Shown here piece after piece: positions 5,101 to 54,668 of a stretch of DNA of 55,479 bases. Made by a program: the position numbers and the translations under genes. The DNA lies in NCBI GenBank assembly GCA_973895155.1, contig OZ316894.1:502289-557767 (forward strand). The letters run 5' to 3'. The notes under the pieces are model-generated. The model searched no databases and was not told the origin of the DNA. It was given only the letters and a program-made list of their open reading frames with translations. Source of the stretch: Marsupella aquatica (taxonomy: Eukaryota > Plantae > Marchantiophyta). Every line of letters starts with the position of its first letter. Position 1 is the stretch's first letter.

Positions 5101-8100
5101 TGTCACGTCGTAGGCTTCGGCCTTAACTCAGACTTCAGCTTAGACGGGCACATCCCTCGTAAATCTGAGGGTTCGGGCAGGGAGGGAAGCACGTAATGCA
5201 CCTTATTCTCGTAAACTAGCGCTAAGTGCGCATACTGCTAGATTCGGACACCTCCTAGGTATGGTTTGTGTTCCGCCGCCGGAACGTACCTTAGTCGATA
5301 GCAGGATCGACCTCGGCTTAAGGGCTTCTAAGCCTTCGTGCTGTCCGCCTTCGATCCGGATTCGATGATACAGGTCCTCAACCCGTGCTCGCAACCACTT
5401 ACCCGCAGGCTGCACCCTGTGCACGTCTCGGGTGGTGCGTTCGGCCTGGCGCTGCCACCCATACACGAGAAACCCACACACATATGCGCACACATGCATA
5501 CAATCTCGATTTACACGAAGGAAAATGATGGGAAAGGATTTTACTACAAAGGGAACATATGCGTACACTTAGTTGACCCGACAGCCCTGGAATGAACAGG
5601 TTCAAGGCCGAGGGTGCACACTACAACGGAGCCCGGCTCCGCACTCGCCCGGCGAGCTTAGTCCTACCCCCTCCCCTTGGTACTCTGTCATTCCCAGAGG
5701 TCGGGACTCCCCGCATATCCCGCGGATGTCCGACTCTGAAACTAAAAACCCCCCCCCCTCCTGCCTCTACCGAGGGGTGCACTAAATACTAAGAGCCGAG
5801 GGACGGGGTGTCCTCTCGCCGAAGATTCGCTGACTAAGGTCCTAACTAAGCTGACAGTCAGGCCGGAAAACGGCTGTGTCTTATTGGAAGATCCTAATCT
5901 ACGCAGGCTGGACAGCAGGGCAGCGCTGCTGTACCTAAGGCAGGTGCCTGTCCCAAGAGCCTGACTAAGCCAATCCTAATCCTAATCTATTCCTACTCCG
6001 CCGCTAATGCCTGGCACGCTTGCCAGAGCCGCCCGAATGGGAACGGCCATCCCGCTGCCTTCGAAGCCTGTCATTGTCCGCTTTGAGGAGCTGGACCTGG
6101 TCCAGCAGAGATTCGTTCTCTTGCCTCGCCGCGTCCGTCTCCTCTGCTGCCTCCTGACATGCCTCCTCCAGCTGCTGGGCGTCGCTCGTCAGTTTACCCG
6201 CCAGCTGGTCCTGCTTCTCGGCCTCGGTTTGGAGCCGCGCCATCTCGGCCTGCAGCGTGGCTATCTCCGCCGTGTCCCGCTGGGCTCGCTCCTCGGCCTC
6301 CTCCAGGTCTTTCTGCCAGGTGACAGCTTGTTTCTTCAAACTGTCAATCTGGTTCCGGAGTCATGTAATCTCGGCCTCGTTCCCAGCTTTGGCCTGTTCG
6401 GCTAGGGCGGTAAGAGCGTACGCCTTTGCTAACAACTCATCGGCGGCTGCAACCTTGGGTCGTAGTTGCAGAAGCTCAGCCTCTTGAGCCGCCACTTCGT
6501 TCTTTAGGTACACGGACTCCACCCGGTACCGCTCTATCCTCTGAAGGGCCTCCGACTGGGCCCGACCTGCCTTTACGGCGGCAACCAACTCCTGATTGAA
6601 GAAACAGGCTACCTTCCGGGCCATGAACTCCCCGGTATCCCGGGCAATTTGATGAGAGAAATCTCCCAGAAGCCCGTTCAGAAACGTACCCTGTACGAAG
6701 AGTTCCGGATGGTCCAAGTTGTACCTGTCCGGATTTGGGCACGGGCAGACGTCAACACGCGCAGGGGCCGGGGCAGTGACGTCCAGCCCTGGGGACATAA
6801 CGTTGGAAGGGGCTGGAGTGTCCTCCTGCAGCGATGTCCGGTTCTCTGGAATTGCCACCGGCGGGTCCTTGGGAGACCCGGGTTCGGGTAAGACCTCTGC
6901 CGTACCAACTTCTGTACTTAGCCCGGCTAGTTGGGTCGCATCAACGGTTGCGACGACCGACCCCTCCGGCGCCTCCTCGGTTACGATTACAGCTATTTGT
7001 GGAGGTGGGGTGGGTGAAGCTGGCGTGTCCACTGGACTTCGGGCCTCGGGTTGGGGCCGTCTCTCCAATGCCGGAAAAACCCACCTAGCTGGGACCAGCT
7101 TTGTAACGTTGATGCGGGGAAGGGTTCGTCGATCAAACCGGGTGTACCACTCAAGAATGATTTTGATGTGGCTAGCGAAATACGCCTTCCCGCCAATGTA
7201 CAGTGTCTTCCTTTGCCGCTCCATCTCTTCATGGAATTTCTTAGCGAAGTACGACGCCCATTTCCTAGGTCGATAGTTCTCGACCTGGATGACCTGGGCG
7301 ACGGAGATCTCCCCCCCGGGGTTCCATCATGTGGAGAGCGTACCTTTGGAACTCCAGCCGCTCAGCTATCTCGGGCATGAGGCAGGTCCTCATCACGAAC
7401 CCGTTGTCTACTGCTCCTTCTGAGGGAAAACTTGAAGATTGGTACTTGGCCCCCTTGCCCCCGGGAGCCCGTGATTCGACTCGATGGTCACCTTCGGGTA
7501 ACCCAAAGATCATCTTGAGCCGTTCTTCTATGAGGGACATATTCCTTCCCCGCAGCCGAGTCTGTTGACGTACATCGTCATAATTCTTGACGAATTCTGT
7601 CATGTCCTCCCCGTAGTACCTGCAAGTGTTCCAGGGGAGAGAGGTGAGGTGCTCAAATCCCTGAGTCTTCAGGTACACCGCATGCTTGGGATGGAGGATG
7701 TTGCTGTGAATGTTTTCCCCCATGCGGTGCATCGTCACCTTGGCTACGGCTACCGTGGCCAACGGTAACCCGGATGCAGTGGCGGATTCCTTCCTCTTCT
7801 TTCCCCGTGACTGACTCGGGGAAGGTGATACTTCCCCATCCTCCCGATCGGGCCTGGGGAGTGCCACTGCGGTTGGTAACGGGCCCGGGGCGGCCACGGT
7901 CACCATGTTGTCTGCTGGGGCCGCTCCTGGGGTCAGAGCAGGGGGTGGGGACGATATAGTGTCGGCCCCCCGAGCGCTTGTTCCTCTGGGCCGCCTGGTC
8001 AAGGGTGGGGTAGCCTCGTCGTCATCGCTAAGATCCACAGCGTTGATGACGGAGCATACCTGTGCTGGCTGGGTGATAGGTGGTGGGGTTTGGCTAGGCT

Positions 8101-9125
8101 GCGGCTGAGGCTGAAGCTGAAGCTGAGCCTGAGGTTGAGGCTGGGGTTGCATGGGCACGGGTACGGGTACGGGCCCGGCTGAGTTGGTCATGTTGGTTGA
8201 TGGCCGAGTTCCCATGAAGCTCTGCAGGTGCTGGTAGAAGTTCTCCGAAGCGAGTGCGGACGCCCTTATCGAACGGTTGGTACTGGACTCGCCGTTAATG
8301 ACAGCCCGAACCTGGGCAGGGAGGTGGTCGAAGTGATGTCGCTGCAGGTCGATTGTACCCGGGATATTGAAGACCTCGTCTGGAAGCCGAAGCAATGCTT
8401 CCCAGAACCCGATATATTTGTCTCCGTTGAAGAAGTACCCAGATACCTCTGCTGGTCGGTAAAGCTCGCTCTGAGACGGGTAGTCAAAGTTAAGGACGTA
8501 GTGGTGTCGTCCTGCTAGGCGGATGGCTCTCTCGTATTCGTGTTCGATTTTGTATCGGCACGGGTTGGCGTGTTTCAATGAATCGGCCAAGTGCCTTCCG
8601 ATAGATAGGAATTGCGTCCAGAATCGAATGGCCGAGCTGGAGAGGATCGTGTGCGACATTCAGAGGAGATAGTAGTGGCGACCTAAAGAGAACGAGAGAG
8701 CTGGGTTCGAAGCTGGCGCGCGGACTGATGGACTGGTGCACTACAAAGGGTTGGCTCCCCTTTTATACTTTGAGGGCTTGTCGATCCCCGACGTCTCCTC
8801 GACGCCCATAGGCTGAACCGCTCACGCTTGTGGTGTACCGGCCACTCCGCCGGTCTGAGTCAGCGTGCGTCAGTGGCCGCTTCCTTAAGTTCGTTATACG
8901 GACCCGAGGGAGGGGCCCTTCCACGCTCGTAACCCGGGTGTGCAAATAGCGACCCGCCGCCAGCCTGAACCTAAAGTCCCCCTTATTGGCTAATGATGTC
9001 CTACCCCTAATGATTACCTAAATGCTGTCGTTATGCTAATAATAGCGGCCTAAGACCCACCTAACGCGCGTGCTGAGCGCAGTTAGACTGAATCACTCAT
9101 TAACCGCCGTACCAGCGGCGTCACA
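5101..9125 (-). repeat. Family A 5' LTR, about 4.0 kb
   Basis: The minus strand begins TGTGACGCC (family B begins TGTGATGCC) and ends CGTGACA just before the PBS, giving an imperfect terminal inverted repeat. No second copy is in the window, so the boundaries are inferred. Confidence 0.7.
6004..8659 (-). pseudogene. LTR-internal ORF of family A (about 885 aa): P/Q-rich region, FGLP/NGF domain, C-terminal coiled coil
   Basis: ORFs 7265-8659, 6361-7224 and 6004-6339 join via one frameshift at the C/G run near 7311-7321 and one in-frame stop at 6361. LPW...EFV...FGLP.G...NGF...TC aligns by eye with the family B LTR ORF. Confidence 0.75.
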
Positions 9126-13660: not shown

Positions 13661-16600
13661 TGTGATGCCTAGACAGGAATCACTCGGCCAGTTAAGTGGG
13701 TAAAGCAGGAAGGCACCCTAGGAACACCTTAGTATAGGGACAAAACAAGGAAAATATAAACCATTAGGGGCAACCATGGAACCCGGGCCGAGGCCGGAGG
13801 TAAGGACGCTGAGGGTGAAAACTCGATTAGGGTTAGGGCGCGTTAAGCGTCGGCGGCTAGGAAGGATCAACGGGAAGAAGGATCGGCAGAGGAGAGGGGT
13901 AAGGAGCGCTTGCAGGAGATGGTGGCTCATTTGCGAGCACGAACTAGGCAGACGACTACGGGAGGCCAACTACTGTCAGCTGCTTAGGCAAGCACTCGGG
14001 GAGAGAGTAGATACCGACGATCGACCTAAGGAGGGTATGAGCAACGTCAATCAAGCGGCACATTTCTGGGGATGCCTGTTCGAACGGGCAACTGAGTACA
14101 TCAAGACTTACGAGGACGAGGAATCAGAAAGGGCAGCTCGAGAACGGTAGGAGCTCGCTCGATTGTGGGAGCTGTAGAAGACGGCTTTCTTAGGAGGCCA
14201 ACTCATCAAGGATGAGTTCCTGTGGACGCCTACTTCCAATCAACTCGACGATCTTCTGTTTTGCAAAGACAGCGTCGTCGGCATCCGAGAGGCCATCAAG
14301 AACTGCAACGACATACACTGGGAATTAAAGGGTAGCACGGAAAGGTGGACCCAGGCAACGGTGCTAGGAGAAACCTCCACGGCAGCAGAGATGAAGAGGA
14401 AGGGAGCCGTCAACGATGAAGCCACCCCGGCAAAAAGAACGAGGTCGGCGGCACCAAAGAAGCCAGCCGAGCAGCAGAGCAGGAGGCAGGGAGAAGCCGA
14501 AGAGGAGGAGGTCGATCCCATCAAGGCCATTCCAACCAGGGATGACACCTGGAAGGGCTGGGCGGCAACCCTACCGGTGGAGGTGCAACTACATTTTGCA
14601 CGGGAGGAGGATGCATGCTTCACGGCCATGCAGACCAAGAAGTACCAAGGCTTCATGGCCGGATCCGGCTTAGAGGCCTTTGTAAGATTACCATGGCTGA
14701 AGCCGGAGGTACCGGAGTCAGACCTATTAGAATTCGTGGGGTCATGGGAACCCGAGACCAATTGCACGAGGATATATGGGAAGGATTTCTATCTTACTCC
14801 CAAGGTAATTGCCGAAGTGTTTGGCTTGCCGATAGGCAATAAGACCAAAGTTGATACCAGGAAGACCTTGCCTGACAAGGAGTTCCGGTCGTTCCCCGGG
14901 CCATCAACGAAGAATGGCTTCTTCCGGAACACCTGCACCAACCCGCACATAGGAGAGATGATCAACTTCTTGCGGGTGACCATGCATTGTAACTTGCCGA
15001 GGGCAGAGATCGGCAAGGCACAGGTCTATCTGGCAGAAAGGCCAGACCCAAGCCGGGACTACAACGGGTACCTCCTCAACCAATTGAAGAAGATCTTAAA
15101 GGAGGAGCAGCAGGTAATCGGCATGGGGAGCGTGTCGCGGCTTGGCTATCACATGCCGCTGTTGTGCCGGTATGCCAGAGGTCAGACTTTTGCCCCGGTA
15201 CTTCCCCTGCATGTAAGGGCACCCGAGGAAGCTCCAACGCCGAGGCCGTTGGCTGAGAAGCCTCAACCACCTGTTAGCCCTACGATCGAGCAGGTGTTTA
15301 GGCCCAGGAAGGAGGACTTGCCGATGCAGCAACCAGGCATGCAGAGTCTGCTGAAACTACTGGAGAAAGAAAAGAAATTGGCATCAGCAACAACAACGGC
15401 AACGGCAACAATGCAGGACACTACTACAGAGGTAGGCCTACACCGGCTCACAAGAGAAAACCCCTTTGCTGGAGACAAGGAGAGAATCAGGCCTGAATCC
15501 AAGCCAGGTGTTCGAATGTATGTGGGAATCTCAAGCTCCGAATCTGAGGCAGAATTGCCTGAAGCTCCTACCCACGAAGAGGAGAGGGAGAAGCCGGATG
15601 GCCAAGAAGTAGAGGAGGCAGTGGAGGACTGCAGCCATGATAATTCCAGCTATGGGTCGGACCATCACGTCCCAGGAGTAAGGACCTGTGGCCGGTTTGT
15701 CCCCACACTTCCAAGGGTAGTGCGAGGGGACCCCAACCAGCAGAGTAGCCCTGAGTCTCCCCCACCAGATGTTGCTCCCCCGAGCTTCGACGGCATAAAA
15801 CAGACGGTGCAGGAATTTCATGAGCGAATCAAGCAGGAAGAGGAGGCAGCCCTGGCTAAGGAAAAGGATTTACCAGGAGGAGATTGGCCGGAGGATATCA
15901 GGCGGCTAGCCAAAAAAGGAAGCAAACCTCTAGCCACGATTGAAGAGATCCGCAAGATGGCTTGGGAGCAGAGGCCGCGATGGGCGATGCCGATCACTTC
16001 TACTTACTCCACCTACGCTAAGAATAGAGCCATGGAGTATGGTGAGATGTGTGGGGAACTTGCGCTCGGCATCTTTGGAGAGGAGTTGGAGGTAGGACCC
16101 TTTTTCCATAGGGAGCAGTTGGAGAAGCACCAATTAGAAGAAGCGGTGGCTTTAGAGAGAAGCAAGAAGGACGAGGTCATTCGGCGGCTTAGGAGGATGG
16201 AAGCCGAGATTGAAGATCTAAGGGCGGCCAAGAAAGCCCAAGATGAACTGCGGATTAAACGACATGAGCTGAACATCATGCAGGGGCAGTTGGACACCGC
16301 GCAGGCTGATAATCAGAATATCAAGGATAGACTGACTCAGACGCAGGGAGAGTTGGCCGACACGATCAAAGAGAGGGAGAAGTGGAAGCAAGAGCTGAAG
16401 AATACAGAGGAGGCCCACATAACAGCCAACAGCCGGGCCATGGCGGAGACCCAAAGAAAGGAATGGGCGTTGAAGGGGGAGCTCGAGAAAATCCGCGGAG
16501 CCCTTGAGCAGAAGGAGGCCGAGTTAGGGAAATCCTATCAAGGGATTATGGCGCTGCAGCAGGAGCTTGCGTCCCTGACGGCCAGCTTCAAGGCCGACCT

Positions 16601-18323
16601 AAGGGAGAAGGACGAGATGCTCGAACAGACTTACGCCAAGATGAACCAGATGAAGTCTGTCATCATTGTAGAGCTCGACAAGGAGCTAAGAGCAACCCAG
16701 GAGGAGAGGACTACCTTGAAACAAGAACGGGAGGAAGCCCAGAAGGAACTAGAGGAGGCACGCAAGGACCTGGATGAGACCCAGGAGGAGTTGGAGGAAA
16801 TCACGAGGAAGATGGAGAACCTCCAGCGGCGGGCCGACAACCAAACGGAGCGGCTGAAGAAACAAGCCGCAGTATTTAAGTGCTTGTCTTCATCAGGCCC
16901 AACTCCAATTGGGGCAACCAAGTTACCAGGAGTGGTACTGGCCGAAGAAAAAGCCGCGCCAACTACACCAGTGCCGGAAGTAAGTGGGAAGGGGAAGGGA
17001 CCAGCTGCCGAACCAGAAAAGAAGAAAAAGCGGAAACCTTCAGGGTCAAGGAGTAATCCGACTCCACAAGCCGTGGTGACCAAAAAGGTAGAACCAGCAC
17101 CATCCTCCGGCATGAATACGGCAATAGATCCCGCTATCATCACAGGTGGGGGTGGTGCGGCCCAAGCCGAACTACTCAGTAATGAGGCCGGTATTCCAGA
17201 TCCGCCTCTTGAGCAGGCCGGGGAGACCGTAGCCGAGGCTGAGGCCGTAACCGATTCCCAAGCCGACGCCGACGCCGATGGTGGACCCAGTCAGGCCGAG
17301 GGAGAATTGACTCAGTCAAGGGCAGGTAATCTGTCAAGGAATGAGCCTACGGCAGTGGCTGAGGAGGAAGCGTTGGGGGCGTCCATTAAGGATCCACCAC
17401 CGGTGTCGTGACGGTGCAAGGGCGCCGTTCCTTTTAGGGAGGGCGGACGTGGAGGGAGGAGGCGTGAGTGGGCAGGGCGGGCTCGGATCTCCACGTTTAG
17501 GATTAGGATCAGAACCAGGAGCGGCCCTGACACTTAGCTTAGTGGGATTGCGGTCCCACTAGTAGGAGCAACACTTGTGCTCCTGCCTTGCTGTACATAG
17601 GTAGATTCGGGCAAGTAGATTACTATTAGGTAGATTAGGCTTACGATGCAAAGAATGGCGGATCCACTACCAGGATAAGTACCTGGGCAGCGGGGAGCTC
17701 AGGGCCTCTTCTTTAGCAAGTTTTTAGTTTGCACCAGCCGGGCTGGGATCAAGTAGTACGAGAAGCTCTCGGTTAGTCATACAGTGACCCTTGTGTATAT
17801 TCATGTTTCCTCATGCCTAAGAGCTGAATAGAGTTGGCCTCACGGCTTAGTTCGCAGAACTTGTGTATGAGATGTACTGTTTGTATGGCAAGTGCATGGT
17901 ATGACTCAGTCAGAATGAGTCATTTTGCTATTTGTGTGTCGCATTAACTTGTGTGAAGAGTGCCCACATCAACCAGAAGGAAGGAAAGTAAGCAGGGGAG
18001 TGAGAGTTGGATGTGTCGAGCTGAGAGAGGTCTTAGCGGCTTAACCAAGCCTATTGGGGATCATTCCGGCGGCGGAATCCAAACATACCTAACAAGACGG
18101 AGGGGAAGACAGGGGAAGGCCTAGATTAGGCTGGCTACGTATCTCATGACCCGATGAAGGATCTGTCCAGTATATGTGTGTAAAATGTTAATAGTAGTAG
18201 TAGAAGGTTAGCAGCGTCCCATGCCGCTAAGCCGCGGAAACGGCCTCGCCAAGCGCGAAACCTGCGGGAATCGGCTTGAGCTGGGGGGTTTCTTGGGTTT
18301 AGGGAGCCATGGGACGCACCACA
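13661..18323 (+). repeat. Family B 5' LTR (4663 bp)
   Basis: TGTGATGCC...GCACCACA followed by the PBS. Near-identical to 24541-29208. Confidence 0.95.
13776..17411 (+). pseudogene. LTR-internal ORF of family B (1211 codons; two TAG stops at 14148 and 14174)
   Basis: Same frame as the uninterrupted copy starting at 51771, which has CAG at both positions. Contains a basic N-terminus, FGLP/NGF domain, acidic/Pro linker and long heptad coiled coil. Confidence 0.85.
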
Positions 18324-18327
18324 TTTT

Positions 18328-18345
18328 TGGCGCTAGATGGAGGGG
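18328..18345 (+). promoter_or_regulatory. Primer binding site, probably tRNA-Asn(GUU)
   Basis: TGGCGCTAGATGGAGGGG, 4 nt after the LTR-terminal CA. Confidence 0.85.
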
Positions 18346-18392
18346 GCATTTCTTAAGCCGTGAGATATGAAGTTAGAACGGAAGCGTAGGTA

Positions 18393-21386
18393 ATGACTGA
18401 CCTTACACCGAGGGAAGAAAGAGTGATTCAACGGGAGAGAGCTCGACTGTAGCAGCTCGCCGGGTGGCATGATACACAGCGACTGAGAGGGGCAGAAAGA
18501 GCTGGTAGCTCCGAAACTGGAAGTGGCGTCGAAGAAGACATACCAGAAGAAGAGTCGGTAAGGAGAAGTGAGTCTCCAACCGACATGGGGGAACCAGAGG
18601 CACGGCCAGACGAGAGGCCAGGGACCAGATTGAGCCAGCGGTCACGCATACATTACAAGGCATTTCATGGGAGAGGAGATGAGGATCCGGACGAATGGTT
18701 GGATGATTTCGAGGGAACCGCTGCAGCAAATGGAGAATCGGCCATCAAGATGCAGATTCTTCCCGGCCTGTTCAAGGGTGAGGCTAGGCCTTGGTACAGA
18801 GCATTAGATGTGGAAGATCAAGCCATCTGGGATATCTTCAAAACACTCTTTGTTAAGGAGTTTCGACCCATTGGAACTTCAGAACTAGCAGTGCTGAAGT
18901 TGGGACAACTTCGGTTCAAGGAGAACAAATCCTTCAGGAAGTTCTTGCAACGCTTTCAGAAACTGGTAAGACGTACAAAGACCAATGCATCTGAAGGTAT
19001 GCAACTTCAATGGTTGGTGAATGCTTTGCCACAGAAGATGAGTTTTGCAATTAGGAAGGAGAACCCGGAGACCTTAGCCGAAGCAATTAAGGATATTCAA
19101 TTATACATTAATGTAGATATCACAAGCCGGAAGAAACAGCTTAAGTCTGAGAGTTCCTCATCAGAAGAGGGATCACCCCATAAGAAAAAAGATAAGAAGA
19201 AGAAACATTCTAAGAAGTATAGAAGTGATAAGTCAAGCTCGGATAGTGGGAGTAGCAAGAGTGAGTCATCTTCTAGTTCTGAAGAAGAAAAAACTAGGAA
19301 AAGGAAGGGCAGAAGGAGAGGGAAGACGAAAGTCAAGCTGGAGGCTAAGCCACCAGATAACATCGTAGCCCTTACCGAGCAACTTAAGGCTATCATTGCA
19401 GAGGTAAAACCGAAGAAGAAGGTAGTACAGGAGGATAGCTCTGTATGGTGTGCCTTATGTTATAAAACCGGACACCATAAAGATGCGTGTCCTAAGCTTA
19501 ATACTAATCATGTTTGGCATGTGGCCGAGATCAGACCATGTCAGGGAGAAGTAGAGTACTTTTTAGGAGATGCCGCTGATAGTGTTTTCGGCATCAGTGA
19601 GACTGGAGCACGAGACCTATCCAACAGACCTGCATCTCTATGGTCAGGGTTAAGGAACAATCCAGGAGAGATGTATCCTCGGATTATTCAGAACCCGTCA
19701 GTACCTCCTAGGCCGAATGTGCAAAGATTTGCGGCGTGCTATAATTGTGGTCAACCTGGCCATTTTGCTAGAGAATGCCCGAATGCACGCAAACAGGGTG
19801 ATGGACAACCAGCTCAGCTATGTATGGGATGCCGACAGGAAGGTCATATGCTAGGGCAATGTCCTACTTGGTTGGCAGGCCTGGCCGCAAATCATAAACT
19901 TTTGCCGGTCAAGATCCTACCGCCAGGCACTACCCCCGGAGGAGTTCAAATCAACCACATCGAACTAGGATGGCAAGAGGATGTCGAGGCAGAGTTCGTA
20001 CCATCTGATGATGAGGCCGAAGCCCTATCAACCTTCTCAGAGGAGGATTTAGATCATGATTGCTACCGGGTCTCTACTCGATCTACCAGAAGGAAGGAAA
20101 GGTGGGATGGGCTGGCCAAAAATAAAGGGAAGGTTACGGAGGAAAAGATCGACTCTTCGTCAACATCAACAGAAGGAGAAGGGAGGGCTCCGGCAATACA
20201 GGTAAGCCATGAGCCCACCAGTGAAACCAATCCTTCACAAGATAGCGACTTCAATCGAGATCATCCTAAGTTGTTCTACCCCTCTGTTACGGCTAGTGTT
20301 AAGGAACAACTAAGAGAATTAGAAACCCTGGAGAATACCGAAGCCATTGCCAAGGATGTAAAATGAGCAAAAGCATTGTTTGCTTCGGAAGACCCAACAG
20401 CTGTGGAGACTAGCGTGGCAAAACTGGCCAAATCCAAGACGGAGACACCACCAGAGGAGAAGCCGATTGTTCCCTATGACCTGGCTAAAGATGTACTAGA
20501 ATCTAGAGTCTCGGCAACAGTAGGTCAACTATTGAAAAATAGCCCGTACTTCCGGAAGCAATTAAGGAAGGCTATTCTCGGCAAGCCGAGATTACCCAAG
20601 GTAGCAACCAGATCCGACGTACTAATGATAGAAGAAGATCAAGGAGCCCTAGCATTACCATTAATGATTCAAGGAGAATTATTACTACGGGTACCCATCG
20701 ATGGAGGATCAGGGGTATGTATTATGATTGATTCAACAGCAAAAGGGTGGGGTCTAACACCGGAGATGACTGGAAGAGTGTTGAACATGGCCAATGGATA
20801 TCAGGTCATTCCCACGGGAGTGTTAACCGGCATCAAGACAGAGATAGGAGGTATCTTCTTTAGCATTAACTATGTAGTAATGAAGCCGGTAAATCCTACG
20901 TCATTCCGGCTATTGATTGGTAGGCCATGGCTGTACCTAGCCGAGGTAATAGAAGATTGGGGTAAAAAGCAGTTCACTTTCGGGACCCCCTCTATCACGG
21001 TATCCTGGGACACTAAGGATGACCGTAGGAAAAGCATAAGGGAAGTAGATGGGTACGACAGTGGACTGGAGTCAGCCGATGAAGTACGTTGGTTAGAATG
21101 CCTCACTGACCTAACCGAAGAAAGTGTCTTTGGACCAGAGGTACCCCCCAGCGGATTATGGCAAGAACCAATGGAAGGTGACTTGGAAGAAGAAGACGAA
21201 GAGGTCGAGGACTGCTTTACAATAGAATCCACCTTTTTAGTTGCAATTCCGGAGGAAGTAAAGGATGTAGACCAATTGGATGAAACGGCTAAGTGGGGAG
21301 CAGTAGCAGGGATAGTGGATTTTCTGCAGGCGTTGTGGCAGAGCCGGCAGGGTTCACAACGCCATCGATCATCGGCAAGGAATTAA
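18393..21386 (+). pseudogene. gag-protease ORF (in-frame stops near 18450 and at 20364)
   Basis: ATG 18393 and ORFs 18585-20366 and 20376-21386 are all in one frame. Contains DPDEWLDDF, three CCHC knuckles, protease PIDGGSG and LLIGRPWL. Confidence 0.88.
21317..21363 (+). promoter_or_regulatory. Candidate programmed -1 ribosomal frameshift signal
   Basis: G_GAT_TTT is in correct phase at 21317-21323, followed by a 5-nt spacer and a perfect 9-bp stem GGCGTTGTG/CACAACGCC. It lies in the -1 overlap of the gag-PR and RT ORFs. Confidence 0.7.
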
Positions 21387-24300
21387 ATACCAAGGGATCG
21401 GCATACAAGCCGATTACGAGGGCAGAACAAATTGAGGCCCTATTAGAAGCCGAGAGAGCACAGCGGCCTGACTCTCAAGAGCAAGAGGTGGATGAGATGG
21501 ACAGACACAATCCAGAGCCAAGGCAGGAAGGGGAGCCGACCACCAATTCAAAACCGAATAGACCGGCAAGGGGACAATCTATGGACACCAAGGACGGGAC
21601 CGACTCGGCTAGTCCAGCCGAGATTCCAGTTTATGGAGGTATGAGATTAGAGAGACTGGAAGCCGAACTGGACCCGAATTTGAAGAAGCAGATTAATATG
21701 ATCCAAGCACGGCAATATCGGAAGCTCGACTTAGGAGAGGGAAGAGAACTGAACTTAGGGAGAAACCTAGCACCTGAGCTCGAGAAAGAGATCAGTGACT
21801 TATTGATTGAATTTCAGGATGTGTTTGCATGGAGTCACCAAGATCTAAAGGGAGTAGATCCAACACTAGGGGAACATCGAATTGATCTCATGTTAGGAGC
21901 CAAATCATTTCGACAACCAATTCGAAGGATGAACCCGAAGTATTCCCTGCTGGTCAAAACAGAAATCGACAAACTAGTGGAAGCTGGATTCATCACTCCA
22001 GTCCTGCATTCAGACTGGGTGTCTCCAATTGTGATAGTTCCCAAGAAAGCTGGACCCGATGGTAAACCCAAGATCCGGGTTTGTCAGGATTACAGGAAGC
22101 TGAATGAAGCAACATTAAAAGACCATTTTCCTTTACCGTTTACTGATATGGTACTAGATATGGTAGCCAGTCATGAACTATATTCATTCATGGATGGATA
22201 CTCTGGTTATAACCAAATCAGGATTCGGCAGGAAGACCAAATCAAGACGGCCTTCATCACGGAATGGGGGATCTATGTCTTCAATCGTATGCCGTTTGGA
22301 CTCTGCAACGCACCAGCTATGTTCCAACGATTAATGGTGAACATTTTTCATGATTACTTGAGAAAGTTCATGGAAATCTTCATTGACGACTTTGCAGTAT
22401 TCGGGAAGGCATCGAAACATGCTAAATACCTCAGGAAAACCTTCATGAGATGTAGAGAGGTGGGTCTCAAGTTACACCCAGATAAATGTTTTTTTGCAGT
22501 AACCGAGGGGGTGCTACTAGGTCACAAGGTATCAAGGAAGGGCATTGAGATTGACAAAGGTAAGCTAGCAGTATGGCTAGATATCATGCAACCTAAGAAC
22601 ATAAAGGATGTAAGATCCTTCTTGGGATGCATTGGTTACTATCGCCGGTTCATCAAGGATTTTGCCAAGCTAGCTTTACCATTAACCAACATGCTCAAGG
22701 CAGGAGCAGACTTCGAACCCACACCCGAACGAGTCACAGCGGTGGTAGAATTGAAGCAGATGTTAGTAGAGGCCCCAGTCATGATAGCACCGGACTGGAA
22801 CAAAGATTTTCATGTTTTTGTAGATGTCTCGGGCTTCTGTATTGGCTCAGTACTAAGTCAGTTGGATGAGAAAGGAAGGGACCATCCCATATACTTCGCA
22901 AGCCGTCAGCTTGCCGATGCCGAACGGAACTACTCTACCACGGAAAGAGAAGCATTAGGAGTCATTTATTCTTGTAAAAAGTTTAGGCATTATTTACTAG
23001 GGTACAAGGTAATCTTTCATACTGATCATGAAAGTACCTAGTCAATAAGCCGGACCTTACAGGCAGAGTAGCAAGATGGATTTTGCTATTACAGGAGTTT
23101 GACTATGAGCTGAGGATCAAGCCGGGAAAGTTACATGCCAATGCCGACTTCTTTTCAAGGATCACAGGTAAACCTGCCACGGATTGCATCGATGATCAAT
23201 TCCCCGACGAGGAGCTATTCGTTGTGGAAATAGCTGGTACATGGTACCCTGAGATTTTACAATTTCTCAGCACTTCCAGATTACAGCCAGGATTAAGCCG
23301 AGAGCAAGCCGCAGTCTTTGTGCGGAAGGTCAGACAGTATCAGTGCATTAAAGGCATACTGCACAAGCATGGAATCAACGGCACGATTCAAAGGTGTTTG
23401 GAAAAGAGAGAGGTAAAATGAGTCCTACGGGCCATGCATGGAGAGGAGGCCGGAGGACATTTTGCCCCAGTAACCACGTCTAAGAAGATATTAAATGCCG
23501 GTTACTGGTGGCCCACCTTGCACAAAGATGTCTATCAGTTTATCAAACAATGCGATCCTTGTCAACGAGCGGGAGGACCAAGGGCGTCCACCAGACATCC
23601 ACTGCACCCTATTCTATCTCTGGCACCATTCGAGAAGTGGGGTATTGATTACATTGGACCTCTGAAACCACTGACCCACCCTCGACGGAACAAGTACATA
23701 ATCCTGGCTACGGATTATGCAACTAAATGGGTAGAGGCCAGACCAACAACGAAGGATGATGCAATTACTACGGCTAGATTCATGTATGAGCAGATCTTTA
23801 CCAGGTATGGAGCACCCCTAGAATTAGTTAGTGATAGAGGAACCCATTTTTTGAATGATATAATTAGTCGTTTAAATGAGCAGTATTTAGTTAAACATAG
23901 GCCTACTACTCCCTACCATCCAAAGGCAAACGGGTTGACAGAACGAGCAAACGGAATTATAGGAAAGATATTGAACAAGACAGTAGCTCAGAACAAACTC
24001 GATTGGGATGATAAATTGTTTGCTGCTGTTTTTGCTTACAATCTTGCCTATAAATCCACTACCGGTCATACACCCTTCTTCTTAACCTTTGGACAAGAAG
24101 CCCTGGTACCCATGCAACTTGAGATACCGACATTTCAAGTTACAATTGAGGAAAGAGCCTCAGCGTAGGAGAGCCTAAAGGAGCGAGAATATAGGTTAGA
24201 AGCTTTAGAGGAGGCGAGAATGATTTCAGCCGAGAGAGTAGAATATAGACAGAATATCATGAAGCAGCAGTATGATAAAAAGTTGAAAGTAGTTAGTATT

Positions 24301-24527
24301 CATACCGGTGATCTTGTGCTACTTTATGACAGTAGGTATAGTAGGTTTCCAGGAAAGCTTTACACTCGCTGGTTAGGACCCTTTAGAGTAACCATGATGT
24401 TCCCCAATGGCTTCGTACAATTGGCCAACATTACGGGAGAGGTATATCCAGTTTGCATCCATTATGACCGCCTCAAGAAATACTATATGGACGAAGATGA
24501 AGTTGTTCGCGAGGACGCTTCACAATT

Positions 24528-24537
24528 AAGTGGGGAG
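24528..24537 (+). promoter_or_regulatory. Polypurine tract inside the integrase CDS
   Basis: AAGTGGGGAG lies 3 nt upstream of the 3' LTR start TGTGATG. Confidence 0.7.
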
Positions 24538-24540
24538 CTA

Positions 24541-27500
24541 TGTGATGCCTAGAAAGGAATCACTCGGCCAGTTAAGTGGGTAAAGCAGGAAGGCACCCTA
24601 GGAACACCTTAGTATAGGGACAAACAAGGAAAATATAAACCATTAGGGGCAACCATGGAACCCGGGCCGAGGCCGGAGGTAAGGACGCTGAGGGTGAAAA
24701 CTCGATTAGGGTTAGGGCGCGTTAAGCGTCGGCAGCTAGGAAGGATCAACGGGAAGAAGGACCGGCAGAGGAGAGGGGTAAGGAGCGCTTGCAGGAGATG
24801 GTGGCTCATTTGCGAGCACAAACTAGGCAGACGACTACGGGAGGCCAACTACTGTCAGCTGCTTAGGCAAGCACTCGGGGAGAGAGTAGATACCGACGAT
24901 CGACCTAAGGAGGGTATGAGCAACGTCAATCAAGCGGCACATTTCTGGGGATGCCTGTTCGAACGGGCAACTGAGTACATCAAGACTTACGAGGACGAGG
25001 AATCAGAAAGGGCAGCTCGAGAACGGCAGGAGCTCGCTCGATTGTGGGAGCTGTAGAAGACGGCTTTCTTAGGAGGCGAACTCATCAAGGATGAGTTCCT
25101 GTGGACGCCTACTTCCAATCAACTCGACGATCTTCTATTTTGCAAAGACAGCGTCGTCGGCATCCGAGAGGCCATCAAGAACTGCAACGACATACACTGG
25201 GAATTAAAGGGTAGCACGGAAAGGTGGACCCAGGCAACGGTGCTAGGAGAAACCTCCACGGCAGCAGAGATGAAGAGGAAGGGAGCCGTCAACGATGAAG
25301 CCACCCCGGCAAAAAGAACGAGGTCGGCGGCACCAAAGAAGCCAGCCGAGCAGCAGAGCAGGAGGCAGGGAGAAGCCGAAGAGGAGGAGGTCGATCCCAT
25401 CAAGGCCATTCCAACCAGGGATGACACCTGGAAGGGCTGGGCGGCAACCCTACCGGTGGAGGTGCAACTACATTTTGCACGGGAGGAGGATGCATGCTTC
25501 ACGGCCATGCAGACCAAGAAGTACCAAGGCTTCATGGTCGGATCCGGCTTAGAGGCCTTTGTAAGATTACCATGGCTGAAGCCGGAGGTACCGGAGTCAG
25601 ACCTATTAGAATTCGTGGGGTCATGGGAACCCGAGGCCAATTGCACGAGGATATATGGGAAGGATTTCTATCTTACTCCCAAGGTAATTGCCGAAGTGTT
25701 TGGCTTGCCGATAGGCAATAAGACCAAAGTTGATACCAGGAAGACCTTGCCTGACAAGGAGTTCCGGTCGTTCCCCGGGCCATCAACGAAGAATGGCTTC
25801 TTCCGGAACACCTGCACCAACCCGCACATAGGAGAGATGATCGACTTCTTGCGGGTGACCATGCATTGTAACTTGCCGAGGGCAGAGATCGGCAAGGCAC
25901 AGGTCTATCTGGCAGAAAGGCCAGACCCAAGCCGGGACTACAATGGGTACCTCCTCAACCAATTGAAGAAGATCTTAAAGGAGGAGCAGCAGGTAATCGG
26001 CATGGGGAGCGTGTCGCGGCTTGGCTATCACATGCCGCTGTTGTGCCGGTATGCCAGAGGTCAGACTTTTGCCCCGGTACTTCCCCTGCATGTAAGGGCA
26101 CCCGAGGAAGCTCCAACGCCGAGGCCGTTGGCTGAGAAGCCTCAACCACCTGTTAGCCCTACGATCGAGCAGGTGTTTAGGCCCAGGAAGGAGGACTTGC
26201 CGATGCAGCAACCAGGCATGCAGAGTCTGCTGAAACTACTGGAGAAAGAAAAGAAATTGGCATCAGCAACAACAACGGCAACGGCAACAATGCAGGACAC
26301 TACTACAGAGGTAGGCCTACACCGGCTCACAAGAGAAAACCCCTTTGCTGGAGACAAGGAGAGAATCAGGCCTGAATCCAAGCCAGGTGTTCGAATGTAT
26401 GTGGGAATCTCAAGCTCCGAATCTGAGGCAGAATTGCCTGAAGCTCCTACCCACGAAGAGGAGAGGGAGAAGCCGGACGGCCAAGAAGTAGAGGAGGCAG
26501 TGGAGGCAGTGGAGGACTGCAGCCATGATAATTCCAGCTATGGGTCGGACCATCACGTCCCAGGAGTAAGGACCTGTGGCCGGTTTGTCCCCACACTTCC
26601 AAGGGTAGTGCGAGGGGACCCCAACCAGCAGAGTAGCCCTGAGTCTCCCCCACCAGATGTTGCTCCCCCGAGCTTCGACGGCATAAAACAGACGGTGCAG
26701 GAATTTCAGGAGCGAATCAAGCAGGAAGAGGAGGCAGCCCTGGCTAGGGAAAAGGATTTACCAGGAGGAGATTGGCCGGAGGACATCAGGCGGCTAGCCA
26801 AAAAAGGAAGCAAACCTCTAGCCACGATTGAAGAGATCCGCAAGACGGCTTGGGAGCAGAGGCCGCGATGGGCGATGCCGATCACTTCTACTTACTCCAC
26901 CTACGCTAAGAATAGAGCCATGGAGTATGGTGAGATGTGTGGGGAACTTGCGCTCGGCATCTTCGGAGAGGAGTTGGAGGTAGGACCCTTTTCCATAGGG
27001 AGCAGTTGGAGAAGCACCAATTAGAAGAAGTGGTGGCTTTAGAGAGAAGCAAGAAGGACGAGGTCATTCGGCGGCTTAGGAGGATGGAAGCCGAGATTGA
27101 AGATCTAAGGGCGGCCAAGAAAGCCCAAGATGAACTGCGGATTAAACGACATGAGCTGAACATCATGCAGGGGCAGTTGGACACCGCGCAGGCTGATAAT
27201 CAGAATATCAAGGATAAACTGACTCAGACGCAGGGAGAGTTGGCCGACACGATCAAAGAGAGGGAGAAGTGGAAGCAAGAGCTGAAGAATACAGAGGAGG
27301 CCCACATAACAGCCAACAGCCGGGCCATGGCGGAGACCCAAAGAAAGGAATGGGCGTTGAAGGGGGAGCTCAAGAAAATCCGCGGAGCCCTTGAGCAGAA
27401 GGAGGCCGAGTTAGGGAAATCCTATCAAGGGATTATGGCGCTGCAGCAGGAGCTTGCGTCCCTGACGGCCAGCTTCAAGGCCGACCTAAGGGAGAAGGAC

Positions 27501-29208
27501 GAGATGCTCGAACAGACTTACGCCAAGATGAACCAGATGGAGTCTGTCATCATTGCAGAGCTCGACAAGGAGCTAAGAGCAACCCAGGAGGAGAGGACTA
27601 CCTTGAAACAAGAACGGGAGGAAGCCCAGAAGGAACTAGAGGAGGCACGCAAGGACCTGGATGAGACCCAGGAGGAGTTGGAGGAAATCACGAGGAAGAT
27701 GGAGAACCTCCAGCGGCGGGCCGACAACCAAATGGAGCGGCTGAAGAAACAAGCCGCAGTATTTAAGTGCTTGTCTTCATCAGGCCCAACTCCAATTGGG
27801 GCAACCAAGTTACCAGGAGTGGTACTGGCCGAAGAAAAAGCCGCGCCAACTGCACCAGTGCCGGAAGTAAGTGGGAAGGGGAAGGGACCAGCTGCCGAAC
27901 TAGAAAAGAAGAAAAAGCGGAAACCTTTAGGGTCAAGGAGTAATCCGACTCCACAAGCCGTGGTGACCAAAAAGGTAGAACCAGCACCATCCTCCGGCAT
28001 GAATACGGCAATAGATCCCGCTATCATCACAGGTGGGGGTGGTGCGGCCCAAGCCGAACTACTCAGTAATGAGGCCGGTATTCCAGATCCGCCTCTTGAG
28101 CAGGCCGGGGAGACCGTAGCCGAGGCTGAGGCCGTAACCGATTCCCAAGCCGATGCCGACGCCGATGGTGGACCCAGTCAGGCCGAGGGAGAATTGACTC
28201 AGTCAAGGGCAGGTAATCTGTCAGGGAATGAGCCTACGGCAGTGGCTGAGGAGGAAGCGTTGGGGGCATCCATTAAGGATCCACCACCGGTGTCGTGACG
28301 GTGCAAGGGCGCCATTCCTTTTAGGGAGGGCGGACGTGGAGGGAGGAGGCGTGAGTGGGCAGGGCGGGCGCGGATCTCCACATTTAGGATTAGGATCAGA
28401 ACCAGGAGCGGCCCTGACACTTAGCTTAGTGGGATTGCGGTCCCACTGGTAGGAGCAACACTTGTGCTCCTGCCTTGCTGTACATAGGTAGATTCGGGCA
28501 AGTAGATTACTGTTAGGTAGATTAGGCTTACGATGCAAAGAATGGCGGATCCACTACCAGGATAAGTACCTGGGCAGCGGGGAGCTCAAGGCCTCTTCTT
28601 TAGCAAGTTCTTAGTTTGCACCAGCCGGGCTGGGATCAAGTAGTACGAGAAGCTCTCGGTTAGTCATACAGTGACCCTTGTGTATATTCATGTTTCCTCA
28701 TGCCTAAGAGCTGAATAGAGTTGGCCTCACGGCTTAGTTCGCAGAACTTGTGTATGAGATGTATTGTTTGTATGGCAAGTGCATGGTACGACTCAGTCAG
28801 AATGAGTCATTTTGCTATTTGTGTGTCGCATTAACTTGTGTGAAGAGTGCCCACATCAACCAAAAGGAAGGAAAGTAAGCAGGGGAGTGAGAGTTGGATG
28901 TGTCGAGCTGAGAGAGGTCTTAGCGGCTTAACCAAGCCTATTGAGGATCATTCCGGCGGTGGAATCCAAACATACCTAACAAGACGGAGGGGAAGACAGG
29001 GGAAGGCCTAGATTAGGCCGGCTACGTATCTCATGACCCGATGAAGGATCTGTCCAGTATATGTGTAAAATGTTAATAGTAGTAGTAGAAGGTTAGCAGC
29101 GTCCCATGCCGCTAAGCCGCGGAAACGGCCTCGCCAAGCGTGAAACCTGCGGGAATCGGCTTGAGCTGGGGGGTTTCTTGGGTTTAGGGAGCCATGGGAC
29201 GCACCACA
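24541..29208 (+). repeat. Family B 3' LTR (4668 bp)
   Basis: Near-identical direct repeat of 13661-18323, with scattered SNPs and small indels such as a 9-bp duplication near 26495. Confidence 0.95.
24655..28298 (+). pseudogene. LTR-internal ORF, 3' LTR copy (TAG at 25054, 1-bp deletion near 26990)
   Basis: ORFs 24655-25056, 25240-27024 and 26937-28298 reproduce the 5' LTR protein. Confidence 0.85.
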
Positions 29209-31676
29209 ATGGCTTCTTCCGGAACACCTGCACCAACCCGCACATCGGAGAGATGATTGATTTCTTGCGAGTGACCATGCACTGTAACTTGCCGAGGGCA
29301 GAGATCAGCAAGGCTCAGGTCTACCTGGCAGAAAGGCCAGACCCAACCCGGGATTACAACGGGTACCTCCTCAACCAACTGAAGAAGATCTTGAAGGAGG
29401 AACAGCAGGTGATCGGTGTGGGAAGCGTGTCCCGGCTTGGCTATCACATGCCGCTGTTGTGCCAGTATGCCAGAAGTCAAATCTTTGCCCCAGTACTTCC
29501 CCTATCGGCAAGGGCACCGGAGGAGGTCCCGGAGCAGAGGCCGGCACCAAAGAAGCCCAACCAGCCCGACAGTCCGACGATTGAGCAGGTGTTTAGGCCA
29601 AGGAAAGAAGACTTGCCGATGCAGCAACCAGGCATGCAAAATCTGCTGAAATTGCTGGAGAAGGAAAAGAGAACGGTTCCGGCAATGGCAACGACACCGA
29701 TACAGGACACTGCCCAAGAAGTTGACCTAAGCCGACTCAGAAGGGAAGACCCCTTTACCGGAACCAAAGAGAGATTGAGGCCGGAACACAAGCCGGGAGT
29801 GCGAATGTACGTGGGAGCCTCAAGCCCCAAATTTGAGGCAAAGGAGCCGGGAGTCCAAGTAGTGGAGGAGGCAATGGAAGACTACAGCAATGATAACTCC
29901 GGCTATGGGTCGGATCATCATGTTCCAGGAGTAAGGACCTGTGGCCGATTTATCCCCACACTTCCAAGAGTAGTTCGAGGGGACCCCACCCAGCAAAGTA
30001 ACCCCGAGTCTCCCCCACCAGAGGTTGCTCCCCTGAGCTTTGACGGCATAAAGCAGACGGCACAAGAATTTCAAGAGCGACTTAGGGAGGAAGAGAGAGC
30101 AGCCTTGGCTAGGGAGAAGGATTTACCAGGAGGAGATTGGCCGGTGGACATCAAGCGGCTTGCCGAGAAAAGAAGCAACCCTCTTGCCACCGTAGAAGAA
30201 ATCCGCAAGACGGCTTGGGAGCAGAGGCCGCGGTGGTTGATGCCGATGACTTCTAGTTACTCCACCTATGCTAAGGATAGAGCCATGGAGTACGGGGAGA
30301 TGTGTGGGGACCTGGCGCTCAGCATCTTTGGGGAGGAGTTGGAGCAGGGACCCTTTTTCCACAGGGAGATGTTGGAAAAGCACCGATTAGAAGAAGCGGT
30401 GGCTTTGGAGAGAAGCAAGAAGGACGAGGTCATCCTGCGGCTTAGGGAGAAGGAAGCCGAGGTGGAAGACCTACAGGCGGCCAAGAAAGCCCAAGATGAG
30501 TTGCGGATTAAGCGGCATGAGCTAAACATCATGCAGGGGCAGTTGGATACCGCTCAGTCTGACAATCAGATTATCAAAGATAAACTGACTCGGACCCAAG
30601 GAGAGTTGGTCGGCGCAGTCAAGGAGAGAGAGAAATGGAAGCGGGAGCTAAGGGATGCAGAGGAAGCCCACTTAGCAACCAACAATCGGGCCATGGCGGA
30701 GAACCAGAGAAGGGAGAGGGCATTGAAAGGAGAGCTCGAAGATATCCGCGGAGCCCTTGAGCAGAAGGAAGCAGAGTTAGGGAAATCCCATCAAGGGATT
30801 ATTACGCTGCAGCAGGAGCTTGCATCCCTGACGGCCAGCGTCAAGGCCGCCTTGCGTGGAAAGGACGACCAACTTGACTAGACTTCTGCCAAGATGAATA
30901 AGATGGAGTCTGTGGTCGTTGCAGAGCTCAACAGGGAGCTAGGAGCAACCCAGGAGGAGAGGGCTACCTTAAAAAAAGAATTGGAGGAAGCCAATAAGGA
31001 GCTGGAGGAGGCGTGCAAGGACCTGGACGAGACCCAGGAGGAGTTGGAGGAAATCACGAGGAAGATTGAGAACCTACAGCGGCGGGCCGATAACCAAACG
31101 GAGCGGCTGAAGACACAAGCCGCAGTATTTAAATTCTTGGCTTCATCAGGTCCAACTCCAGTTGGGGGAACCCAGTTACCAGGGGTAGTATTGGCCGAAG
31201 GACAAGCCGTAACACTCACCCCGGTGCTGGAGGTAAGTGGCAAGGGGAAGGAACCGGTTGTCGAAATAGGGAAGAAGAAGAAGCGGAAACCTTCTAGGTC
31301 TGGGAGTTATACGGCTTCTCAAGCCATTGTGACCGAGAAGATAAACCCGGCACCAACCTCCGGCATCGGCACGGTGGTAGATCCACCAATCCTAGGAAGT
31401 GGAGATGGAAAGGCCGAGGCCGGGAGAACCAGTAATGTTGCCGAGGTACCAGATCCTCCACTAGAACATGTCGGGAAGGCCGTAGCCGTAGCAGAGGCCG
31501 TAGCCATAGCAGAGGCCGTGACCGATGCTGAGGCCAAAGCCGAGGGTGGACCCAGTCAGGCCGATGAAGAGTTGACTCAGTCAGGGGCAGGTAATCTCTC
31601 AGAGGAGGGACGAACGGCAGTGGCTGGGGAGGAAGCGTTGGGGGCGTCCATTGAGGACCAGCCACCGGTGTCGTGA
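29209..31676 (+). pseudogene. LTR-internal ORF, diverged subfamily (one stop at 30879)
   Basis: Protein is collinear with the other copies through ...PPVS*. Indels are in frame. Confidence 0.85.
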
Positions 31677-32572
31677 CGGTGTAAGGGCGCCGTCCCTTTT
31701 AGGGAGGGCGGACGTGGAGGTAGGAGGCGTGAGTGGGCAGGGCGGGCGCTGATCTCCAAGTTTAGACTTAGGATCAGGATCAGGAGACGGCCCTGACACT
31801 TAGATTAGTGGGATTTCGGATCCACGGGTGTGGACGACACTTGTCCTCCTGCCTCGCTGTACTTAGGTAGATTATAGTAGGTAGATTAGGCTTACGCTGC
31901 AAGGAATCAGGCGGATCCACAACCAGGATAAGTACCTGGGCTTCGGGGAGTTCAGGGCCTCTTCTTTAGCAAGTTTTTAGTTGGACCAGCAGGGTTGGGA
32001 TCAAGTAGTAAGAGAAGCTCTCGGTTAGTTATACAGTGACCCTTGTATATATTCATGTTTCCTCATACTTAAGAACTGAATAGAGTTGGCCTCACGGCTT
32101 AGTTCGCAGAGCTTGTGTATGAGATGTACTGTTTGTATGGCAAGTGCATGGTATAACTCAGTCAGAAGGAGTCATTTTGCTATTTGTGTGTCGCATTAAC
32201 TTGTGTGAAGAGTGCCCACATCAACTAATAGAGGAATAGAAGTAAGCAACGGAGTGAGAGTTGGATGTGTCGAGCTGAGAGAGGTCTTAGCGGCTTAACC
32301 AAGCCAATTGGGGATCATTCCGGCGGCGGAATCCAAACATACCTAATGGAAGACCAGGAGAGGAATACAAGGGAGGGACTAGAATAGGCCGGCTAAGTAT
32401 CTCATGACCCGATGAAGGATCTGTCCAGTATATGTGTGTAAAATGTTAATAGAGGATTAGCAGCGTCCCATGCCGCTAAACCGCAGAAACGGCCTCGCCA
32501 AGGATGAAACCTGCGGGAATCAACTTGAGCAAGGGGGTTTCTTGGGTTTGGGGAGGCAGGGGACGCACCACA
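29209..32572 (+). repeat. Diverged family B-subfamily LTR, 5'-truncated (3' or solo LTR)
   Basis: Starts mid-ORF (ATGGCTTCTTCCGG, equivalent to about 14914) and ends GACGCACCACA with no PBS after it. It is clearly more diverged than the paired LTRs. Confidence 0.9.
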
Positions 32573-35586: not shown

Positions 35587-35589
35587 GAA

Positions 35590-51400: not shown

Positions 51401-51642
51401 AAAGTAGTTAGTATTCATACCGGTGATCTTGTGCTACTTTATGACAGTAGGTATAGTAGGTTTCCAGGAAAGCTTTACACTCGCTGGTTAGGACCCTTTA
51501 GAGTAACCATGATGTTCCCCAATGGCTTCGTACAATTGGCCAACATTACGGGAGAGGTATATCCAGTTTGCATCCATTATGACCGCCTCAAGAAATACTA
51601 TATGGACGAAGATGAAGTTGTTCGCGAGGACGCTTCACAATT

Positions 51643-51652
51643 AAGTGGGGAG
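51643..51652 (+). promoter_or_regulatory. Polypurine tract
   Basis: AAGTGGGGAG just before the LTR start at 51656. Confidence 0.7.
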
Positions 51653-51655
51653 CTA

Positions 51656-54600: not shown

Positions 54601-54668
54601 AGAAGGACGAGATGCTCGAACAGACTTACGCCAAGATGAACCAGATGGAGTCTGTCATCATTGCAGAG
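51656..54668 (+). repeat. Family B 3' LTR, first 3.0 kb, interrupted
   Basis: Begins TGTGATGCC. Homology stops after CATTGCAGAG. Confidence 0.93.
51771..54668 (+). CDS. LTR-internal ORF, stop-free for 966 codons until the insertion
   Basis: Open from ATG 51771. The last about 59 aa of the listed ORF come from the inverted LTR. Confidence 0.85.

Follow-up and report, generated by a model that had tools for sequence, protein, structure and literature searches.

The 55,479-nt stretch of contig OZ316894.1 of the liverwort Marsupella aquatica analysed here (hereafter the window, in whose positions all coordinates are given) carries a Ty3/gypsy retrotransposon, family B, with 4.66-kb long terminal repeats (LTRs) that each hold a long gene in sense orientation. 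It also carries part of a second element, family A, with the same layout (Table 1). From LTR1 to LTR2 the family B element measures 15.5 kb. Self-BLAST aligns these two LTRs as direct repeats, 98.8% identical (43 substitutions in 4659 columns), which open on TG and close on CA, with a primer-binding site (PBS) after the 5' LTR and a polypurine tract (PPT) before the 3' LTR. The domains in between, called by Pfam except for the protease, which was located by homology to family A, follow the Ty3/gypsy order of gag, protease, reverse transcriptase (RT), RNase H and integrase. The PBS, which we take to be of tRNA-Asn type, is identical in family A (24 of 24 bp including the flank). The gag frame ends on a TGA (20364-20366) directly in frame with the protease region, which could be a mutation or a read-through signal; this site lies outside the second copy.

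The 4.66-kb repeat behaves as a true LTR and not as a tandem duplication, since its two ends recur in different contexts and together with a PBS and a PPT. Three LTRs begin at the same TG base, two right after the PPT and one inside a unit of a 169-bp array, and four LTRs stop at the identical base, each before a different sequence. This bears out an earlier note on this DNA, which had put the LTR at 4.66 kb and not 0.9 kb and had placed the gene downstream of the PPT in sense orientation: the PPT abuts LTR2, and LTR3 likewise follows the second pol and the same PPT. We consider it nearly certain that the gene lies within a 4.66-kb LTR. The LTR1-LTR2 pair is likely a recombinant or a deleted nest, because it lacks a target site duplication (TSD) of 4 to 6 bp (the flanks are AGAAT and ATGGC, from different repeats) and because its two LTRs, 0.92% diverged, are no closer to each other than to LTR3 (0.86% for LTR1, 0.66% for LTR2). 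This concerns this copy and not the LTR unit. Some minority alleles are shared, one by LTR2 and LTR3 (24820) and two by LTR1 and LTR2 (15386 and 15648), a hint of recombination among LTR copies.

The frame inside the LTR runs from an ATG at LTR nt 116 (13776) to the TGA at 17409-17411, i.e., 1211 codons or 78% of the LTR, as the earlier note had described. Its claim that the open reading frame (ORF) is present in every family B LTR spanning the region holds for the frame, found in all four such copies, and not for an intact ORF of 1211 codons, found in none. The gene of LTR1 has TAG at codons 125 (14148) and 134 (14175). That of LTR2 has the TAG at codon 134 (25054) and a 1-nt deletion at codon 776. 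LTR4 retains only codons 380-1211, with one stop, and LTR3 is open for 966 codons, including across codon 134, until it is cut by an inverted LTR end. The gene likely starts at codon 88 (ATG 14037, LTR nt 377), which would give 1124 codons and 72% of the LTR, because homologues open their N-terminal domain at residues 1-7; the TAG at codon 134 would then lie within the first domain. A profile built from nine N termini, that of family A and those of eight homologues, aligns to LTR3 at codons 92-187 with 23.0 bits (E 2e-6), compared with 5.6 bits for the best of 500 shuffles. The pairwise comparison of the A and B N termini was not significant, with 273 of 2000 shuffles equally good. The 87 codons before the likely start are probably a leader or promoter.

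This reading frame is not due to chance: codons 88-1211 of LTR1 contain 2 stops in the coding frame versus 22 to 53 in each of the other five. The gene evolves under purifying selection. Between LTR1 and LTR4 the ratio of nonsynonymous to synonymous substitution rates (dN/dS) is 0.31 for the 818 codons compared and 0.15 within codons 380-490, the substitutions fall 117/95/202 on the three codon positions, and all three indels in the gene have lengths divisible by 3, compared with two of seven in the non-coding tail that follows it. The same pair of LTRs is better conserved in the tail than in the gene (90.6% versus 83.1%).

Family A repeats this layout. Its LTR bounds are putative because its second LTR falls beyond the window. 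Within them lies a sense-strand homologue of the gene (tblastn E 3e-10), followed by a tail of 903 bp with, near its 3' end, a 28-bp motif shared with family B. A TATA box at LTR nt 359 stands 108 nt upstream of the gene's ATG, and the tails of both families are without TATA-like words of the upstream form. The RTs of the two families are about 71% identical over the RT core. Given this second element with the same layout, a gene inside the LTR is a trait of the lineage and not a single accident.

Table 1. Features of families A and B in the window
Feature	Position	Strand	Remarks
Family A putative 5' LTR	5101..9125	-	4025 bp, TG...CA, then PBS and gag; TATA box at 8767
Family A gene homologue	6004..8659	-	N-terminal domain, core domain, coiled-coil-like end; one frameshift, one stop
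Family B LTR1 (5' LTR)	13661..18323	+	4663 bp, TG...CA; breaks 169-bp tandem array mid-unit
Upstream in-frame stretch	13776..14036	+	87 codons, without counterpart in homologues; TATAA at LTR nt 95
LTR-borne accessory gene	14037..17411	+	likely 1124 codons; LTR1 copy has TAG at 14148 and 14175
N-terminal helical domain	14037..14375	+	common to family A and Calypogeia homologues
Core domain	14514..15212	+	codons 247-479 from ATG 13776, 233 residues; predicted VANC/PMD-like fold
E/K/Q/R-rich stretch	16176..16775	+	codons 801-1000, proline-free; weak coiled-coil Pfam matches below cut-off
Non-coding LTR tail	17412..18323	+	912 bp; 7 TTAGG words; 28-bp motif 18064-18091 in common with family A
PBS	18329..18347	+	same as family A PBS
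gag	18585..20366	+	Retrotrans_gag, zf-CCHC; TGA end in frame with next reading frame
pol	20367..24552	+	protease, RT, RNase H, integrase; disrupted by stops and a 7-bp deletion
PPT	24528..24540	+	immediately 3' of integrase frame
Family B LTR2 (3' LTR)	24541..29208	+	4668 bp; gene TAG at 25054, frameshift at codon 776
LTR4	29209..32572	+	older, 5'-truncated, 83% identical; codons 380-1211; 3' end as other LTRs
Second family B element	47583..54668	+	5'-truncated; pol, PPT, LTR3 (51656-54668)
Inverted family B LTR 3' end	54669..55479	-	reverse insertion into LTR3

What does the gene encode? Pfam names no family anywhere in the LTR-borne protein, and word-indexed protein searches returned no homologue of the ORF. 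Homologues were found only by a full HMMER scan with the core domain, which gave 70 of them at E <=0.001 among 1.84 billion proteins. Among 20 proteins that we looked up, 17 of them core homologues, seven are named records of Calypogeia fissa, and no further species name appeared. A model of the core domain made from 58 aligned rows has a pLDDT of 89.6 and a pTM of 0.87. Its top Foldseek match in PDB is VANC21 on DNA (9lnj; E 1.1, TM 0.46), with the next rows at TM <=0.16. VIA-align, used without Foldseek, likewise pointed to VANC21 (9lnk): no other of the 48,161 solved chains reached Z >=2, and this one has a Z of 7.8 (values below 8 can reflect a common arrangement), a root-mean-square deviation of 4.1 over 207 of the 233 residues and 9% identity. 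The match covers the domain and stands alone, and we predict for it a VANC/PMD-like fold. Such a fold would supply a reading of the function, for which the earlier note had none.

The protein may work like VANC but does not appear to be a VANC, because DUF1985 matches none of the 58 aligned members and the carrier is a retrotransposon; PMD is equally absent from them in Pfam (both at E <=0.01). Transposase_32 (PF20167) matches two of the 58 weakly (best E 0.0058) and the ORF of a metagenome relative, L010, at E 3e-7, below the cut-off, and the protein of the window matches neither it nor PMD (PF10536). Atlas searches gave leads only, to Transposase_32 and ATHILA clusters, all with scores below 0.9. 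The model of the N-terminal domain (pLDDT 64) matched 4638 chains at Z >=2 without a clear winner. Sequence searches against solved structures returned only coiled-coil noise, and the viral fold library nothing at E <=0.001. Further along, codons 801-1000 likely form a coiled coil, and a possible nuclear signal, KKKKRK, follows at codon 1082. An env-like role is ruled out, the protein being without any hydrophobic segment (maximum KD19 0.83).

The nearest named RTs are three proteins of Riccia sorocarpa (52-58% identity), and a quick tree of 102 RT rows without labelled references groups families A and B with the Riccia and metagenome RTs, apart from the angiosperm matches. Pfam finds neither an additional RNase H (aRH) nor a chromodomain in the pol of either copy, and gag-pol fills the internal region; the element is a non-chromovirus Ty3/gypsy. 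A metagenome scan with generic RT patterns listed at least 79 loci, and none of the 15 examined for repeats has a gene inside an LTR. Viral contigs showed no match to the RT or the PBS, and the PBS had one match in prokaryote genomes (L080). Only one close locus, L001, stands among the matches listed (RT 57% identical), and its ORF is also the best match of the core profile to the ORFs of the at least 79 loci (E 4e-7, followed by L021 at 6e-5 and L010 at 0.009). L001 reads integrase, PPT-like tract, sense ORF, PPT and an LTR of 991 bp, which begins with the same seven bases as the family B LTR.

In three further loci, L010, L021 and L005, a sense ORF also lies upstream of the PPT. Because all four relatives share this arrangement, an internal position of the gene, between pol and the LTR, is likely ancestral. 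With a homologue placed between pol and an LTR of about 1 kb in the closest relative with flanks among the loci listed, the gene likely moved into U3, and the 912-bp tail of family B is likely the ancestral LTR. The idea of the earlier note that an accessory gene was absorbed into U3 thus stands as to the gene, which is under selection, and fits the comparison with these loci; its placement in U3 proper, judged from sequence, is probable. L001:3717-7576, where PPT-like tracts at 3760 and about 6560 flank the internal accessory ORF, is a possible intermediate of a gene move into or out of the LTR. We also considered L005:1-18746, with terminal repeats of 6190 bp and an ORF of 1267 codons in each, as a second case of a gene in an LTR, and rejected it: there the ORF comes before the PPT and hence belongs to the internal region, and we take the repeat for a tandem or assembly feature.

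Retroviral frames that lie in U3 and are copied into both LTRs include sag of MMTV and part of nef of HIV. They are several times shorter than the ORF described here and unrelated to it in sequence or fold. The additional ORFs of plant retrotransposons, by contrast with the present gene, are placed in the internal region (PMC7264820; PMC11963269; here and below, papers are cited for what their available parts state). Athila ORF-1, the Ogre PMD and Retand TRP28 resemble the present gene in being family-wide accessory genes under selection, with a globular domain and a coiled coil (PMC7264820, PMC6317226, PMC11963269), but they are internal, whereas this one lies past the PPT, within the LTR, in sense and at both ends. 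Ogre and Retrosat2 resemble our element in their long LTRs (3 to 6.5 kb) and in having extra ORFs, which in their case are described as internal or upstream of gag-pol (PMC6431247, PMC3485330). With the VANC proteins of VANDAL Mutator-like DNA transposons (PDB 9lnk, 9lnj), the gene product would have in common the predicted core fold, a coiled coil, its encoding by a transposable element and a short word repeated in non-coding sequence of the element. VANC21 recognises a nine-base motif found outside the coding regions of its own element, and its action strips methylation specifically from that family (PMC5735166). The fold is common to VANC and MAIN/PMD proteins, and VANC, like the Athila domain, has been modelled to oligomerise via coiled coils (PMC13547354, bioRxiv 10.1101/2024.09.27.615353). 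It has been called dicot-specific (PMC13547354), whereas the present gene sits in the LTR of a liverwort retrotransposon, with 9-12% identity, no DUF1985 match and a putative anti-silencing role.

As to lineage, the liverwort Tat Z2 and the moss Phygy elements are, like ours, non-chromoviruses of bryophyte hosts that lack an aRH (PMC13468544, PMC6317226). Phygy elements are described, in the available part of their account, as measuring 7.7-10 kb, with a tRNA-Trp PBS, an NCGN TSD and no extra ORF (PMC6317226). The present element, of 15.5 kb and with a large extra ORF, falls outside that description. It also lacks the aRH that defines the Tat clade of REXdb (TatI-III, Ogre, Retand). Athila is characterised by its RT grouping, the absence of an aRH and a tRNA-Asp or tRNA-Asn PBS; for the present element, at most a possible member, no aRH was found, and in the quick unlabelled tree its RT groups with Riccia and metagenome RTs, apart from the angiosperm matches. 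Tat Z2 is a candidate lineage, with which the missing aRH agrees (PMC13468544). The parts of the system (accessory ORFs, long LTRs, retroviral U3 genes and VANC) are all known. We did not meet them combined in a plant LTR in the literature searched, which yielded neither a description of a plant retrotransposon with a protein gene in its LTR nor a VANC-like factor shown for a retrotransposon.

If the protein binds a word in its own element, TTAGG is a candidate, and a lead only. It tops the 5-mer counts in the non-coding LTR sequence of both families, with 11 copies in each, all on the sense strand, versus expected counts of 2.8 and 2.5. CpG and CWG ratios did not separate the LTR from gag-pol.

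The explanation that we favour, with modest confidence, is that of a Ty3/gypsy element carrying the gene of a VANC/PMD-like anti-silencing protein in the U3 of its 4.66-kb LTR. The gene would have begun between pol and an LTR of about 0.9-1 kb. Once plus-strand priming had shifted to a purine tract lying before the gene, U3 would have included the gene and the old LTR would have remained as the 0.9-kb tail, and reverse transcription would from then on have copied the gene into both LTRs. The gene could have a promoter of its own close to the LTR start, and the encoded protein, with its predicted VANC/PMD-like fold and likely coiled coil, may bind a short sequence word within the LTRs of its own element and hold off host silencing. 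Such a protein could work in trans, with a minority of open copies supplying the many that have the stop at codon 134. A bolder version takes the LTR for a self-contained VANC-type module (gene, promoter and TTAGG clusters flanking the gene), lets solo LTRs unsilence the family and sees in this fold the older source of VANC; we think it unlikely.

Several observations weigh against the favoured explanation. The PPT context of family B resembles the downstream tract of L001 and not the upstream one, so that a mere change from one tract to the other is unproven, and the LTR of L001 has no sequence match to either tail. The VANC21 match is middling by its Foldseek E value, TM score and identity, and likeness of fold by itself shows no function. 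The enrichment of TTAGG is weak in family B, where 44 of 300 shuffles match the top 5-mer count (3 of 300 in family A). This word also resembles the telomere repeat, and the LTR of L001 contains it only twice. Further points on this side are the lack of an intact gene copy in the window, the codon-134 stop that most close copies seem to carry, the missing PMD and DUF1985 matches, the greater depth of the tail than of the gene, and the absence of a TSD.

How do other explanations fare? The layout and the fold could be right and the protein could have another chromatin job, tethering the integration complex to chosen sites, such as the LTRs of other copies, or activating LTR transcription with the silencing marks unchanged, which we regard as a minority possibility. 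Within the window, family B LTR sequence adjoins two of the four LTR 3' ends, and three joints in run X2, one of the public sequencing runs, link 18323, the LTR end, to other LTR positions; self-insertion would be expected anyway in a very abundant element with long LTRs. No function has been shown for the accessory domains of Athila, Ogre and Retand, which are related (PMC7264820, PMC11963269), but VANC and MAIN/MAIL, both of the characterised fold relatives, oppose silencing (PMC5735166; bioRxiv 10.1101/2024.09.27.615353). The gene could also lie in R/U5, with a single promoter near the LTR start serving both a gene mRNA that ends in the tail and a read-through genomic RNA. The only clear TATA-like words do stand upstream of the gene in both families, with none in the tails, but a gene in U3 would require its own upstream promoter in any case. 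Moreover, in the relatives the gene lies 3' of pol, the tail lengths of 912 and 903 bp match that of the whole 991-bp LTR of L001, and strong-stop DNA would exceed 4 kb, all of which makes this arrangement rather unlikely in our eyes.

A gene that was useful at its capture could by now be dispensable, a dead passenger of the amplified subfamily. The TAG at codon 134 is present in LTR1 and LTR2, and it seems to be the state of most close copies in runs X1 and X2, because 25054 is not among the listed differences despite deep coverage: between 24470 and 25100 the two runs show five differences at >=10% of depth, with no T-to-C row at 25054, where both are deep, an absent row being no proof of identity. 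As this TAG splits the N-terminal domain, the expectation that each insertion delivers two gene copies and that every solo LTR keeps a complete gene is weakened; within the window we saw no solo LTR with TSDs. The family A copy is also broken. On the other side, gag-pol is equally broken in the same copies, LTR3 is open across codon 134, a frame of 1006 codons from ATG 14391, downstream of the TAG, retains the core domain and the coiled coil, and the loose ends from diverged copies show, by eye, mostly synonymous changes on either side of codon 134. We judge a dead passenger improbable. Finally, the true LTR could be the 0.9-kb tail, with the 4.66-kb repeats a tandem duplication or recombination product. 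The missing TSD and the mutual divergence of LTR1 and LTR2, not below that to LTR3, agree with this, as does depth in the public runs. Measured as summed contig depth, with medians of eight gene bins and eight gag-protease bins (not a copy number), it stands in the tail at 5.1, 9.5 and 3.8 times the gag-protease value in X2, X4 and X5, above the gene at 3.8, 3.5 and 3.0 times; run X6, with 231 contigs placed, was too sparse for the ratio. The excess in the tail may reflect higher conservation or tail-only derivatives. This gene depth, about 3 to 4 times that of gag, itself speaks for a gene within the LTR, with the qualification that in X5 the ranges of the gene and gag bins overlap. Together with a PPT adjoining the 4.66-kb start in two independent elements, an LTR1 that opens on the same TG beside an unrelated flank, and a layout repeated in family A, it renders a short LTR highly improbable.

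The rest of the window holds other repeats and genes. The ORF at 43897-45897 (+) has a weak match to the accessory profile (E 0.003) and a coiled-coil-like end, and the next ORF shows, by eye, a RING-like cysteine pattern; the former is perhaps part of another element with a distant member of the family. On either side of these ORFs, at 40549-41027 and 46627-47074, stand two short-unit arrays built on AAGGAC...GTCCTT near-palindromes. A broken gene adjoins the end of LTR4 (32573-35600, +) without a Pfam match in the two pieces scanned; its CxC...CKH pattern near 35400, seen by eye, suggests a Mutator-like element with a SWIM finger. At 12455-13660 and 37325-37640 stand arrays with unit lengths of 128, 169 and about 400 bp that have words like CTCGCCGAG / GAGACCCTC in common; LTR1 cuts one of them, and they are probably the subterminal repeats of a different transposon family. 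The plant telomere repeat occurs in short, telo-box-like runs at 12336-12373 and 35825-35855.

What the accessory ORFs of plant retrotransposons do is not settled (PMC7264820; PMC11963269). The VANC fold match makes the function of this one directly testable on the silencing marks of its own family. A gene within the LTR also alters what a solo LTR is, as LTR recombination that removes an element would spare the gene. Pipelines with short limits on LTR length, or which seek extra ORFs only between LTRs, would miss or mis-date such elements. If the favoured explanation is true, sequence-specific anti-silencing would extend from the DNA transposons of eudicots to the retrotransposons of early land plants.

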